This document shows, piece by piece, positions 38,104 to 42,661 of a DNA stretch of 64,000 nt. The notes under the pieces were generated by a model. That model was not told the origin of the DNA and ran no database searches. It saw only the letters and a program-made list of their open reading frames with translations. The stretch comes from a virus. The DNA lies in the IMG/VR virus record IMGVR_UViG_3300045988_081484; one strand, written 5' to 3'. A program made the translations under genes and the position numbers. Position 1 is the first letter of the stretch, and each line of letters starts with the position of its first letter.

Positions 38104-38646
38104 ATGTATAGACTTCTTGTGATTGTAGATGCGCAGAATGATTTTGTTACTGGCTCTCTGGGGTCTAAGACAGCGGATGCCGCAGTTCCCAATATCGTAA
38201 GTTTAATTCAAAACCATGAGTGGGATAATATCGTTTGTACTATGGATACACATGGAGACGATTATTTTGAAACCCTTGAGGGTAAGAAACTGCCAGTAAA
38301 ACATTGTGAACAGACTAGTCCCGGCTGGTGCATGGATTCTCGAGTTCTTGTTGCTCTTGGTAACAAGTATAATTTTTACGAGAAAGATACTTTTGGCAGT
38401 ACAGATATGGTAAATGAAGTTTATAATTCTTTAAAGATGAAGAATCAAGAGGAAGTAGAAATTCATATTTGCGGATTCTGTACCGACGTTTGTGTTATGG
38501 CTAATACGGTTATGCTTCGCGCGGCGATGCCAAATACTAGAATCGTAGTTCATAGTAGAGCCTGTGCTGGAGTTACCAAAAAGGCACATGAGGCCGCCCT
38601 TGAAATTTTTTCTTCTCAGCAAATTGATGTGGAGGATTGGGTATGA
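38104..38646 (+). CDS. Isochorismatase-family cysteine hydrolase, nicotinamidase (PncA)-like
   Basis: Catalytic 'DAQNDF' ... 'CGFCTDVCV'; sits inside the NAD salvage cluster. Confidence 0.7.
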   Translation: MYRLLVIVDAQNDFVTGSLGSKTADAAVPNIVSLIQNHEWDNIVCTMDTHGDDYFETLEGKKLPVKHCEQTSPGWCMDSRVLVALGNKYNFYEKDTFGSTDMVNEVYNSLKMKNQEEVEIHICGFCTDVCVMANTVMLRAAMPNTRIVVHSRACAGVTKKAHEAALEIFSSQQIDVEDWV

Positions 38647-39455
38647 TTACTTTGCTTAATACACGCAGTCATTGGACAGACATAATTGAACAAAATCATT
38701 TTCCAGATGGTACGCTGCATATTAATATGCCTCCTAACTACTTCGATTATGATACGATTGTTTGGGAGTACGAGAATGATGCAGAATTATTTACTCTCAT
38801 TTGTGTTAAGGGGCATTTCGAAGATTTTCCTGTAAACCTAGATATGCCATATATTCCTCATGCAAGAATGGATCGAGTTCAAGAACTTGAAGATGTATTT
38901 ACCCTAAAATACTTCTGTCAAGTAATTAATAGCCTTCATTTTGATAAAGTTATTGTGCGTGATGCTCATTCTAATGTATCGTTAGCTCTACTTGATAGAG
39001 TTATTGATCTTAGTCCAATTGGAGAAATCAAAGAGGCTATTAAGAGAACTGAGAAATATGAAGGAGAAATTCCTATCCTATTTTTCCCGGATGAAGGAGC
39101 GATGAAGAGATATTCTGTTCCACCTATTAATCTTCCTTATGCTTTTGGAATTAAGAAAAGGGATTGGTCTACTGGAAAAATTCTTGGTTTGCAGTTAATG
39201 AATAGTGAAGTTGTTAAGGATAATAATGTCCTTATTGTAGATGATATTTGTTCCCGAGGTGGAACTTTCTATCATGCTGCAAATGCCCTCAAAGAAGCTG
39301 GTGCAAAGAATATTTATCTGTATGTAACTCATGCAGAGCATACTATGATTGAGGGCGATATGTATAATCAAGATATTGTGAAGAAAATCTTCACTTCTGA
39401 TAGCATCTTCAAGACAGAGTGGGATATTAGAGGAAAGGTAGAGATTGTAAGATGA
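38637..39455 (+). CDS. Type I phosphoribosyltransferase-domain protein, ribose-phosphate pyrophosphokinase (Prs)-like
   Basis: PRPP-binding motif 'VLIVDDICSRGGT' followed by '...GAKNIYLYVTHAEH'. Confidence 0.6.
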   Translation: MGMITLLNTRSHWTDIIEQNHFPDGTLHINMPPNYFDYDTIVWEYENDAELFTLICVKGHFEDFPVNLDMPYIPHARMDRVQELEDVFTLKYFCQVINSLHFDKVIVRDAHSNVSLALLDRVIDLSPIGEIKEAIKRTEKYEGEIPILFFPDEGAMKRYSVPPINLPYAFGIKKRDWSTGKILGLQLMNSEVVKDNNVLIVDDICSRGGTFYHAANALKEAGAKNIYLYVTHAEHTMIEGDMYNQDIVKKIFTSDSIFKTEWDIRGKVEIVR

Positions 39456-39901
39456 CTATTGAGAAACTTCAAGAGTTAAAGATTATGGCTCTTAAAAATG
39501 GAAATACAAATACAAAGAGGGTACTTTCTGACATGATTGATGCGTGTCAGAAAGCAGCCATTACTCCAAAAGGAAGAGTTGAATTAACTGAGCAGCTAGT
39601 TGATGAAACCCTTATCAAATACCAAAAGACAGTACAAGAAATGATTGATACCTGTCCTGCTAGTTATCCTGAAAAATTACATCAGTATCAAGAGGATATG
39701 AGGGTCGTAAAGATGTGTGCCCCTCAACTTATTACTGATAAGGTAGAAATTGAAACAAAAGTAAGAGAGATCGCTGGAACCGCAGGTATTGATCTCCTCA
39801 AAGCAAACCGTGGTGTGCTTATGAAGTCTGTTTCTATGGAGCTTAAAGGTAAGGCAGATATGAAGATTGTAAGTGCTGTTGTTGGAGGGGTGTTAAAGTG
39901 A
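39452..39901 (+). CDS. GatB/YqeY-domain protein
   Basis: 149-aa; family-typical length and Lys/Glu-rich helical composition. Confidence 0.5.
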   Translation: MTIEKLQELKIMALKNGNTNTKRVLSDMIDACQKAAITPKGRVELTEQLVDETLIKYQKTVQEMIDTCPASYPEKLHQYQEDMRVVKMCAPQLITDKVEIETKVREIAGTAGIDLLKANRGVLMKSVSMELKGKADMKIVSAVVGGVLK

Positions 39902-40266: not shown

Positions 40267-40349
40267 TAAAAGCCCTCATAAAGAGGGTTTTTTATTTTTA
40301 TAAAAATATATGATATAATATATTTAAGAAATAAGGAAAGGAAGATTTT

Positions 40350-41939
40350 ATGAGTTTCTTTGATGTAGCTCCAATGTTTGCCGCTGACTATTACAAAGTT
40401 GGTCATGCTATTAAGATGCAGCCGAAGTCTGCTTCTATGGTTTATTCTACTTGGACAGCTCGCAGTTATAAGCATCATCCAAATTGCCCTAAGACAGTGG
40501 TCTTTGGTCATCAATATACCATCCAGAAACTACTTGAATTTTGGCAGACAGAGTTCTTTGATCAGTCAGTTGAGCTTCTTGAACAGGAGTGGAATCATGT
40601 AATTAAAAGCACTTTCCATCCTGATTATGCGGATTTTACCAAGTTTAAAGAATTGCATAAACTTGGTTATTTACCTATTTCTATCATGGGAGTTCCAGAG
40701 GGTACGCTTCTTCCCGTCGGGATTCCAGATCATGTAATTTTTTCTAATCATCAAAATTTTGCATGGCTTCCGCAATTTATCGAAGATCAGTGGAGCGCTA
40801 ATAACTGGCTCCCCTCGACTTCTGCCACTACCGCTTTTTATCGCCGCAAGTTGATTGAGCCTTATGTCAAGACTAGTTGCGACGATATGTCTGCGCTTCC
40901 GCATATGTGCGGAGACTTTTCTCTGCGCGGGCATACAAGCCTTGAAGCGGGTTATATTTCAGGTGCTGCCCATGCTCTTTCTTTTGATAGAACTGCAACC
41001 ATTGGTTCTAACCTTCTCCTTGAAAAATACTATGGAGCAGATCTTGAGAATAATCCTCCCATGATGGGAACTCCTTCTCTTGAGCACTCTGTTGTTGAAC
41101 AAGGTGTAGCTTGGATGAAGCAGAAGATTACTAATGGAGATTTAACTGAAACTGAGCGTTATCTTTTCTCTAAGGCCGCTTTTGATAATTGGGATATTAA
41201 CCTTATTGCAGAAATGCTTTTTATTAATTATCTTTGCACAGAAGTGCAACCTACAGGAACTATGACCTATGTATCTGATACATATGATTATTGGGGTATT
41301 GTATCTAAGGTTCTTCCTATGTTGCACGATGTTATTGCAGCAAGAGATGGATGTTTCTCCGTTCGACCTGATAGCGGAGATCCTGTAAAGATTATCTGCG
41401 GCGACCCAGATGCTATACCCGGTTCTCCTGAGTTTATAGGAACTTTAAATCTTCTAAAAGAAACTTTTGGTGGTGAATTGAATACTAAAGGATATTTTAT
41501 TCTTCCTTCTTATATTCGTATGATTTATGGAGATGCCATTACTCCAGAGATTACTGAAAAAGTTTGCTCTTGGTGTGTTAGAAATAATATCTCAGTATCC
41601 AATCTATGTTTTGGAATTGGAGCTTATACTTATCAGTATGTAACTCGTGATACTAGAGGCTATGCTATTAAAGCTACAGATTGTATCCTCGGCAATGATG
41701 AAATTCAGATTTATAAAATGCCTAAAACCGACCCTGGGAAAAAGTCTCCTCGTGGATGTGTTGCAATTTTTAAAGAGGAGAATGGCAATTATTCTTTAGT
41801 AGAAAATCTTACTCTTGAAGAATCCATTGGATATAAGAACAATGTAATGAAATTTAAAGTCAAGAATGGAAGTTTCTGTACGGAGAGCATAGAGACTATC
41901 GAAACTATTAAAGAGAGATTGATGGGAGAAGTTCTATGA
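40350..41939 (+). CDS. nadV: Nicotinamide phosphoribosyltransferase (NAMPT/NadV)
   Basis: Motifs 'ADYYKVGH', 'DFSLRGHTS', 'RPDSGDP' and 'GDAITPE'. Confidence 0.85.
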   Translation: MSFFDVAPMFAADYYKVGHAIKMQPKSASMVYSTWTARSYKHHPNCPKTVVFGHQYTIQKLLEFWQTEFFDQSVELLEQEWNHVIKSTFHPDYADFTKFKELHKLGYLPISIMGVPEGTLLPVGIPDHVIFSNHQNFAWLPQFIEDQWSANNWLPSTSATTAFYRRKLIEPYVKTSCDDMSALPHMCGDFSLRGHTSLEAGYISGAAHALSFDRTATIGSNLLLEKYYGADLENNPPMMGTPSLEHSVVEQGVAWMKQKITNGDLTETERYLFSKAAFDNWDINLIAEMLFINYLCTEVQPTGTMTYVSDTYDYWGIVSKVLPMLHDVIAARDGCFSVRPDSGDPVKIICGDPDAIPGSPEFIGTLNLLKETFGGELNTKGYFILPSYIRMIYGDAITPEITEKVCSWCVRNNISVSNLCFGIGAYTYQYVTRDTRGYAIKATDCILGNDEIQIYKMPKTDPGKKSPRGCVAIFKEENGNYSLVENLTLEESIGYKNNVMKFKVKNGSFCTESIETIETIKERLMGEVL

Positions 41940-42661
41940 CTAATACGGTTACTAAAATTATAGATTGGATTAAAGAGTATTTCATAAAAAACGGGCCGGA
42001 GTGTAAAGCTGTTATCGGGATTTCTGGCGGCAAAGATTCTACAGTGGCTGCGGCTCTTCTTTGTAAGGCTCTTGGCCCGAATCGAGTAATTGCCGTACAA
42101 ATGCCACAGGGATTCCAATATGATATTGATGTTTCTAATGAGGTAATTGATTACCTCGAAATTACAGAGCATTACAACATCAATATTGGTTCAGCTTGTC
42201 AGGAGATTTTCTTGTCTTTGCCCAATGATATTAGAATTCAGCCGCAAGTTACAAGTAATGTTCCAGCAAGAGTAAGAATGAATATCCTTTATGCAATCGC
42301 CGCGAGCCGTCATGGAAGAGTTGTGAATACTTGCAATAGAAGTGAAGACTATGTAGGCTATTCTACTAAATTTGGAGATGCAGCAGGAGATTTTTCTATT
42401 CTCTCTAATTATACTGCCACGGAAGTTAAAGAAATTGGTATTGAGCTTGGATTGCCAAAGAACTTCATTGAAAAGCCTCCAGAGGATGGATTAAGCGGTT
42501 TAACAGATGAGGAAAATTTAGGATTTTCTTATGATGTCCTAGATAATTTCCTACTTAATGGTATTACTCCTCCATATGAGATATATAAAAACATTGAACA
42601 AAGACATAAGAGAAATTTACATAAGATTTCCCCTATGCCAACTTGTCCATTCTTTTCTTAA
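41936..42661 (+). CDS. nadE: NH3-dependent NAD+ synthetase (NadE)-like PP-loop ATP pyrophosphatase
   Basis: PP-loop 'SGGKDS'. Confidence 0.75.
   Translation: MTNTVTKIIDWIKEYFIKNGPECKAVIGISGGKDSTVAAALLCKALGPNRVIAVQMPQGFQYDIDVSNEVIDYLEITEHYNINIGSACQEIFLSLPNDIRIQPQVTSNVPARVRMNILYAIAASRHGRVVNTCNRSEDYVGYSTKFGDAAGDFSILSNYTATEVKEIGIELGLPKNFIEKPPEDGLSGLTDEENLGFSYDVLDNFLLNGITPPYEIYKNIEQRHKRNLHKISPMPTCPFFS

Follow-up and report, generated by a model that had tools for sequence, protein, structure and literature searches.

A gene cluster of a human-gut phage encodes a putative nicotinate version of the NAD+-rebuilding pathway NARP1

Which route to nicotinamide adenine dinucleotide (NAD+) is encoded by a phage gene cluster that combines a PncA-like hydrolase and a NAD synthetase with a Prs-like and a NAMPT-like protein? 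This question is raised by positions 38104–42661 of a 64,000-nucleotide stretch, in the following called the window, from the IMG/VR virus record IMGVR_UViG_3300045988_081484. NAD+ depletion is among the commonest outputs of bacterial immunity, as in Thoeris, DSR, SIR2-HerA, SEFIR, Nezha, Kongming and aRES, and the main known viral answer to it is NARP1. In this pathway the phage Prs homologue Adps pyrophosphorylates ADP-ribose (ADPR) and Namat joins the resulting ADPR pyrophosphate (ADPR-PP) with nicotinamide to NAD+, nicotinamide mononucleotide (NMN) not being involved (Osterman et al., bioRxiv 10.1101/2024.02.11.579819). An initial annotation of the cluster had proposed that it rebuilds NAD+ and belongs to the type of module that counters NAD+-depleting defences, an idea that is supported by our analysis. 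We observed that the encoded enzymes are homologous to those of NARP1, that the transferase carries substitutions in its pyridine pocket and that these substitutions co-occur with genes for PncA-like and NadE enzymes. Judged by sequence, we favour on balance that the cluster encodes NARP1 in a deamidated version with four enzymes that would run via nicotinate; both its substrates and its role against host defence are inferred.

The interval is filled by six co-directional open reading frames (ORFs), which confirms the gene content as it had been called, and the domain families named in the initial annotation (Isochorismatase, Pribosyltran, YqeY, NAPRTase and NAD_synthase) were all matched when the proposed HMM check was run. 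The features are the following:

38104–38646, plus strand: PncA-like nicotinamidase-type hydrolase, 180 aa (PF00857 Isochorismatase)
38637–39455, plus strand: Adps homologue (ADP-ribose pyrophosphokinase, Prs-like), 272 aa (Pribosyltran, ribose-phosphate diphosphokinase-like)
39452–39901, plus strand: YqeY-domain protein, 149 aa (PF09424, 33 bits)
39898–40266, plus strand: small hydrophobic membrane protein, 122 aa, about three hydrophobic helices, without family match
40350–41939, plus strand: Namat-family transferase, 529 aa (NAPRTase PF04095; pyridine pocket G188, A216, S243)
41936–42661, plus strand: NH3-dependent NAD synthetase NadE, 241 aa (NAD_synthase PF02540)

Four of the five junctions overlap by 4–10 nt, which suggests translational coupling within the cluster; at one of them the NadE start codon overlaps the stop codon of the transferase (ATGA). 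TAG serves as stop codon in none of the six genes, which matters because the window has a suppressor tRNA with a CTA anticodon and because Phass-1, the closest named phage, is filed in the TAG-recoding "code 15 clade".

The Prs-like protein was found to be closer to Adps than to Prs. With SPbetaL1 Adps a BLASTP score of 140 bits was obtained and with ICP1 Adps one of 94 bits, compared to 55 bits for E. coli Prs, and the protein stays below the cut-off of the Prs model TIGR01251 (84.6 bits against 113), all Prs equivalog models being far below their cut-offs. The acceptor and catalytic residues of ICP1 Adps (PMC13586617), namely F18, R87, H121, D161, K185, D212 and D213, are all kept; as they are largely shared with PRPS, it is the similarity ranking that discriminates in favour of Adps. 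The PP loop reads DDICSRGGTF, a sequence that occurs in canonical NARP1 loci as well. The Adps and transferase genes lie on the same strand, 895 bp apart.

Similarly, the transferase reaches 318 bits to the PDB entries 9w5x/9w5w, the sequence of 9w5x being identical to the SPbetaL1 Namat translated from locus L013, whereas only about 141 bits were obtained with human NAMPT, and it scores below the cut-off of the NAMPT model NF006629 (347 bits against 405). A Namat-specific selectivity clamp has been described as a helix with the motif GS-X-phi-X-phi-X-phi-TRD (PMC12774641). The corresponding adenine clamp of the window transferase is GAYTYQYVTRD, which agrees in 10 of the 11 positions, the two that stack on adenine (3 and 7) both being Tyr. 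From these comparisons the Prs-like and NAMPT-like pair is homologous to Adps and Namat, the enzymes of NARP1. The pair had been annotated as a Prs that supplies phosphoribosyl pyrophosphate (PRPP) to a NAMPT, a view that is not supported in the light of both sub-threshold scores, the greater similarity to Adps and Namat and the presence of the clamp. Since Adps and Namat yield NAD+ without NMN, no NMN adenylyltransferase (NMNAT) is needed and none is missing. The earlier statement that no NMNAT is evident holds for the ORFs scanned, namely 44 of the 58 in the window that reach 100 aa (the other 14 have 100–146 aa): neither an NMNAT (CTP_transf-type) nor a Nudix domain was found in these 44; the accompanying idea that it is supplied by the host or by a gene elsewhere is dispensable. 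More generally, "Prs plus NAMPT" in a phage is no reason to hunt for a missing NMNAT.

To what extent does this transferase deviate from a canonical Namat? In crystal structures of SPbetaL1 Namat the nicotinamide pocket is formed by F189, R192, D215, A242, R306, D13' and Y15', and Asp215 hydrogen-bonds the amide, its replacement by Ala costing about 8-fold activity with nicotinamide (PMC12774641). Five of these seven residues are the same in the window transferase. The two changed ones are D215, which is replaced by Ala (A216), and A242, which is replaced by Ser (S243), and additionally the neighbouring H187 (SPbetaL1 numbering, used for positions throughout) is Gly (G188). A216 aligns with D219 of human NAMPT, which is described as defining substrate specificity (Khan et al. 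2006, as cited in PMC7096376), and the human counterpart of H187, H191, is part of the site that binds nicotinamide and APO866 (PMC3019212). The TDT form is present in every solved NAMPT or Namat structure among the alignments listed, and when the 120 best database homologues are considered, Ala215 together with Ser242 is present in each of the 118 full-length sequences that were aligned. An engineered NAMPT D219S is said to accept nicotinic acid. An hhalign comparison of the clade alignment with E. coli PncB aligned only 55 C-terminal columns at 3% probability, so that no PncB residue equivalents could be assigned. By this alignment-based reading, the transferase is a member of the Namat family with a remodelled, non-canonical nicotinamide pocket.

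In order to relate pocket type and gene context we searched the window proteins against the six-frame ORFs of 10 loci from IMG/VR, 5 from GTDB and 79 from metagenomes (homologues of 33–99% identity) as well as of Phass-1, one faecal phage contig and SPbetaL1. The transferases were aligned and collapsed at 90% identity into 63 clusters. Within IMG/VR, a scan with an alignment of 29 sequences yielded the 10 loci already obtained with a single sequence, the diversity coming from the metagenome and GTDB scans, and when the complete cluster was compared with 50,697 phage records by megablast no match was obtained, relatives being found at the protein level. Transferases with Ala or Ser at position 215 and Ser at 242 are accompanied by a PncA-like and/or NadE gene on the same strand in 30 of 32 clusters, and both exceptions are contigs shorter than 2.8 kb. 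In contrast, neither gene is present in any of the 31 clusters with Asp or Glu at 215 (Fisher's exact p = 6e-16). Where at least 2.5 kb of flank is available on each side, loci of the Ala/Ser type carry PncA, NadE and Adps in 14 of 15 cases each, whereas those of the Asp type carry Adps in 17 of 17 and PncA or NadE in 0 of 17. Two loci scored as lacking PncA, L071 and L091, do carry divergent PncA-like genes, the former matching Pfam Isochorismatase and the latter, which belongs to no family, being recognized by eye. The initial annotation had treated PncA and NadE as generic additions to a NAMPT pathway; they are instead linked to the remodelled pocket.

A scan of every alignment column in 58 representative sequences revealed that only D215/A, A242/S and H187/G split the two groups without overlap. 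The linkage to PncA and NadE persists down to about 35–40% identity and across differing gene orders, which are PncA-Adps-transferase-NadE in the phage-type clade with transferases of 525–565 aa and Adps-PncA-transferase-NadE in the 489-aa clade, including the chromosome of Clostridium beijerinckii. Adps is paired with the transferase in both types (Ala/Ser, 27 of 31 clusters; Asp/Ala, 22 of 29); for genes of the Adps clade a Namat neighbour has been reported in 97% (Osterman et al., bioRxiv 10.1101/2024.02.11.579819). PncA-like genes of the type described here are found in 8 of the 50,697 phage records (Phass-1 and uncultured human-faecal contigs) and an Adps-like gene in about 1,500 of them.

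Are the two linked enzymes suited for a route via nicotinate? The PncA-like protein matches PF00857 Isochorismatase with an E-value of 1.6e-18 (67.9 bits). When the protein is aligned to E. coli PncA together with 19 homologues from the operons, D9 (VDAQNDF) and C127 (CTDVCV) of the catalytic triad prove to be kept, as are D48-x-H50 and H68 of the metal site across the operon homologues; the catalytic Lys, K94 (EKDTF), was read by eye since the alignment is ambiguous there. Its PDB matches are mostly nicotinamidases or pyrazinamidases (1ilw, 3pl1, 2wt9, 2h0r), with the two top-scoring ones, 6a8l and 5zn8, being deposited as 'Isochorismatase'. It reaches only 21 bits with the E. coli-type equivalog model NF008623, for which 174 are required, and it is thus to be seen as a divergent nicotinamidase member. 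NadE passes TIGR00552 (156.5 bits, cut-off 63.65) and matches PF02540 with an E-value of 3e-46. It is a single-domain protein without glutaminase domain and has the ATP-pyrophosphatase loop GISGGKDS (SGGxDS). Its best PDB matches are both NH3-dependent NadE enzymes, from Francisella tularensis (3fiu, 113 bits) and Pyrococcus (2e18, 108 bits), and we take 3fiu to be the Francisella enzyme known as an NMN synthetase. Such an activity of the Francisella enzyme is described in PMC3376133.

Based on these data we propose the following pathway as the simplest complete one. A host NADase (TIR, SIR2 or similar) would cleave NAD+ into ADPR and nicotinamide. The PncA-like nicotinamidase would then hydrolyze nicotinamide to nicotinate and NH3, and the Adps homologue would convert ADPR and ATP to ADPR-PP and AMP. 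The variant transferase, which is without the amide-binding Asp, would join nicotinate and ADPR-PP to deamido-NAD (NaAD) under release of pyrophosphate, and the NH3-dependent NadE would finally form NAD+ from NaAD, ATP and NH3. It is the linkage of PncA and NadE with the remodelled pyridine pocket that points to the nicotinate route. If so, a natural clade of the Namat family has come to use nicotinate in place of nicotinamide as pyridine substrate, giving an undescribed reaction and a pathway of four genes (PncA, Adps, nicotinate ADP-ribose transferase and NadE) in TAG-recoding human-gut phages of the Phass-1 group and, adjoining an NrtR-type gene, in Clostridia, and we consider this somewhat probable. 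The clostridial operon would bypass the PncB and NadD steps of the Preiss–Handler salvage. Full-text searches of the literature, NARP1 papers among it, gave no report in which nicotinate, nicotinamidase or NadE is connected with NARP1, Namat or ADPR-PP-dependent NAD+ synthesis (subscription-only papers and supplementary tables aside).

Several observations weigh against this proposal. The phosphate-contacting Ser391 of the clamp is Ala in the window transferase. In the 489-aa subclade Gly or Leu stands in place of the basic residue that the window transferase has at position 213 (Arg214), which was for this reason rejected as candidate for a carboxylate partner. NadE is not found in some Ala/Ser-type operons (L040, L046 and L101 from C. 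beijerinckii) and is thus not obligatory within the operon, presumably because these operons rely on the host enzyme. The near-equal scores of 3fiu and 2e18 mean that NaAD and nicotinate mononucleotide (NaMN) are not separable by similarity as substrate of NadE. The Asp-type sequences form a monophyletic clade in a neighbour-joining tree with midpoint rooting, so possibly only one switch took place and the Fisher p-value overstates the independence of the clusters; the persistence of the linkage through deep divergence and gene rearrangement is a stronger argument than the statistics. Finally, a phage PncA seems redundant if the host has its own, and the route would cost an extra ATP. One may speculate that the advantage comes from hosts with a high nicotinamidase activity or from defences that remove nicotinamide.

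A rival explanation is a canonical NARP1 in which Adps and the transferase act as in SPbetaL1 or Bas63, and to which the phage PncA and NadE add a separate boost of the host Preiss–Handler pathway, with nicotinamide being converted to nicotinate, the host PncB and NadD leading to NaAD and NAD+ being formed from it, while the pocket changes are neutral or compensated. All enzyme families are compatible with this explanation, the catalytic core is intact apart from D215 and A242, the two halves of the cluster lie in separate proposed transcription units, and the operons without NadE would be accommodated. Nevertheless we think that it is unlikely, as PncA would compete with the transferase for nicotinamide and the impairment of the D215A variant of a real Namat concerns just this substrate. 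Moreover, it leaves unexplained why the three fully discriminating columns are all located in the pyridine pocket and why PncA and NadE are absent from all Asp-type clusters.

A PRPP-based salvage, with the Prs-like protein making PRPP, the NAMPT/NAPRT-like protein making NMN or NaMN, host NadD or NadR adenylylating it and NadE finishing the route or acting as an NMN synthetase, would agree with the Pfam and NCBIfam names of the two proteins (Pribosyltran/Prs-like and NAPRTase/NAMPT-like) and with 3fiu, presumably the NMN synthetase, as best PDB match of NadE. Residual in vitro activity of Namat with PRPP has also been found (PMC12774641). We regard this salvage as rather improbable, because both proteins are under the curated Prs and NAMPT cut-offs and markedly closer to validated Adps and Namat, and because the kept adenine-clamp motif is relevant to ADPR-PP only; in addition no NMNAT recurs in the related operons, as none was seen in the scanned window ORFs, and the Macro and NADAR inserts of sister operons described below point to ADPR chemistry. 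The same enzymes might also serve another purpose, namely a general NAD+ recycling or auxiliary metabolic module that derives from an NrtR-regulated housekeeping operon of Clostridia-like hosts and raises NAD+ during infection. The presence of the same core operon beside an NrtR-type regulator in the C. beijerinckii chromosome and the recurrence of NrtR-like genes in 7 bacterial-type loci speak for such a module. We hold it for improbable in the phage, where the cluster sits among RNA-repair-type genes that are likely counter-defence, and ADPR and nicotinamide build up mainly when NADases fire; furthermore, canonical NARP1 has been demonstrated to act against Thoeris, DSR1/2, SIR2-HerA and SEFIR (bioRxiv 10.1101/2024.02.11.579819).

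How would the proposed nicotinate route compare to the known systems? With NARP1 (SPbetaL1, Bas63, Fado and ICP1 NrsAB) it shares an Adps gene near a Namat gene on the same strand, although two inserted genes separate them in the window, as well as the active-site residues of Adps, the catalytic core of Namat and the adenine clamp, and in both cases NAD+ would be rebuilt from NADase products without NMNAT. It differs from NARP1 in the pocket (D215A, A242S, H187G), in the linked nicotinamidase and NAD synthetase and in the predicted passage through nicotinate and NaAD, which would take four steps compared to two. NARP1-AP (Adps-Adpp-Namat, with a Macro-domain ADPR-1''-phosphatase) and RyDEP likewise have extra operon genes that widen the usable substrates, and an Ala/Ser-type locus with a Macro gene exists (L002), but the extra genes of these systems feed the ADPR side, whereas those of the window would act on the pyridine and product sides; a Macro or RyR-domain gene was not found in the window ORFs scanned. 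NARP2, which consists of a phage NAMPT and a bifunctional NMNAT/Nudix enzyme (e.g. in KVP40), likewise counters NAD+-depleting defences by rebuilding NAD+ with a transferase of the NAMPT family. However, it depends on PRPP and NMNAT, while the window has an Adps-like partner, the Namat clamp, no equivalent of Asp219 and no NMNAT in the ORFs scanned. As to NARP3 (a PnuC-like transporter and a NadR-like enzyme), the 122-aa membrane protein belongs to no family and no NadR-like protein was detected in the scanned ORFs.

The Preiss–Handler pathway (PncA-PncB-NadD-NadE) resembles the proposed route in beginning with a nicotinamidase, ending with an NH3-dependent NadE and having NaAD as an intermediate. 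In contrast to it, PncB, which forms NaMN from PRPP, and NadD would be replaced by one ligation of nicotinate and ADPR-PP, and the ADP-ribose moiety would be reused instead of being built from PRPP and ATP. The work on Asp219 of human NAMPT addresses the very position at which the window differs (A216), but it concerns an engineered point mutant, whereas the window represents a natural and deeply diverged clade with two further pocket changes.

If the nicotinate-run version of NARP1 proves true, NAD biochemistry would gain a new enzyme activity, and selection would be seen to act on the pyridine side of the pathway too, beyond the ADPR side. The three residues G188, A216 and S243 could then be used as a signature for annotating enzymes that are now labelled NAMPT or NAPRT. 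It would also suggest that hosts or defences which remove nicotinamide can block canonical NARP1 and NARP2.

What is the role of the two genes between Adps and the transferase? The YqeY gene is present only in the closest relatives (L003-L007, L014 and L019-L022) and in none of the other surveyed loci, and likewise the gene of the 122-aa membrane protein, for which no Pfam or NCBIfam match was obtained, is limited to close relatives among these loci. We considered both as core parts of the pathway, e.g. a PnuC-like importer, and rejected this on account of their restriction to the nearest relatives and the lack of a transporter family match; they are therefore treated as lineage-specific inserts. 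That genes inserted into NARP1 operons can be functional is known from the Macro phosphatase Adpp and from RyDEP (bioRxiv 10.64898/2026.01.28.702374; PMC13232231). Sister operons of the Ala/Ser type show further inserts between the transferase and NadE, a Macro-domain gene in L002 (11306–11932) and a NADAR-domain gene in L052 (9597–10478). The same gap in the Phass-1 group (L010, 9475–9978) holds a gene for a protein of about 140 aa with a DxD motif, HAD-like on inspection by eye and without Pfam match. Bacterial versions of the operon adjoin an NrtR-type Nudix regulator. The Macro and NADAR inserts together with the NrtR neighbours are consistent with an ADP-ribose-centred chemistry, NrtR alone not being discriminating. 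Directly 3' of the Adps-PncA-transferase operon of the C. beijerinckii chromosome (L101, orthologues at 4873–8470), and also in L040 and L046, three conserved genes follow, which lie at 8495–11998 in L101. Their products are a protein of 349 aa, one of 307 aa that by eye appears vWA-like and one of 406 aa that is similar to adenylosuccinate synthetase. The last presumably resembles KomA of the NAD+-depleting Kongming system, and the trio may be a defence system that adjoins the NAD+-rebuilding operon.

Regarding expression of the cluster, the spacer of 83 bp 5' of the transferase gene contains a terminator-like hairpin and a promoter-like motif, and the same layout of hairpin followed by motif is found at three sites, 5' of the PncA gene, in the gap between membrane protein and transferase genes and 3' of the NadE gene, which suggests two transcription units:

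38027–38078, plus strand: upstream hairpin and motif, the terminator-like hairpin being AAAGGAGAG-n6-CTCTCCTTT (38027–38050), found by eye; proposed start of transcription unit 1
38066–38078, plus strand: promoter-like motif TATTATATAATAT, 3' of the 38027–38050 hairpin, part of the same feature
40268–40321, plus strand: terminator-like hairpin (40268–40292) and promoter-like motif TATGATATAATAT (40309–40321), proposed boundary of units 1 and 2
42659–42711, plus strand: terminator-like hairpin (42659–42684) and promoter-like motif (42699–42711), proposed end of unit 2

The general form of the motif, TAT(G/T)ATATAATAT, occurs at 18 sites in the window where 0.6 are expected, 16 of them on the plus strand (examples are 10436, 33282, 34661, 40309 and 42699), and it stands 3' of a terminator-like hairpin at all three sites inspected. 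It is probably a phage promoter of this gene block.

The window belongs to a human-gut phage of about 147 kb with near-identical contigs of 146–149 kb, and one contig of 91% identity was binned with a metagenome-assembled genome of Oscillospiraceae. The cluster is flanked by RNA-repair-type genes at 35409–37856 and 42742–45477. This set includes an RNase_T-like exonuclease, an RNA ligase, Metallophos and Metallophos_2 proteins, a Thg1-like 3'-5' polymerase and an AAA_33 kinase of the PSTK/Pnkp type. The RNA ligase is split in the window into two overlapping ORFs (36584–37117 and 37095–37856) and is one ORF of 423 aa in the 99%-identical L005, the intact form indicating a frameshift or sequencing error in the window.

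Upstream of the cluster lies an array of 31 tRNAs as predicted by ARAGORN (10181–28613) with the suppressor tRNA of anticodon CTA at 27479–27554; TAG ends 2 of the 37 long ORFs in the window. The array also contains a phage tmRNA at 16753–17068 (Rfam RF00023, 113 bits) with the tag DNDYFENYLAA, two tRNA-like matches that were found by Rfam and not by ARAGORN, at 19623–19739 (117 nt, possibly with an intron) and 19930–20014, and the gene of a 338-aa NTPase of the AAA/nSTAND3 type (20152–21168). Between the array and the cluster a pair of genes that is unusual for a phage is located, namely that of a 506-aa DUF2828+DUF7788 protein (28857–30377) and, 3' of it, that of an 813-aa protein (30789–33230) with Major Vault Protein shoulder and Vault repeat domains and an SPFH region.

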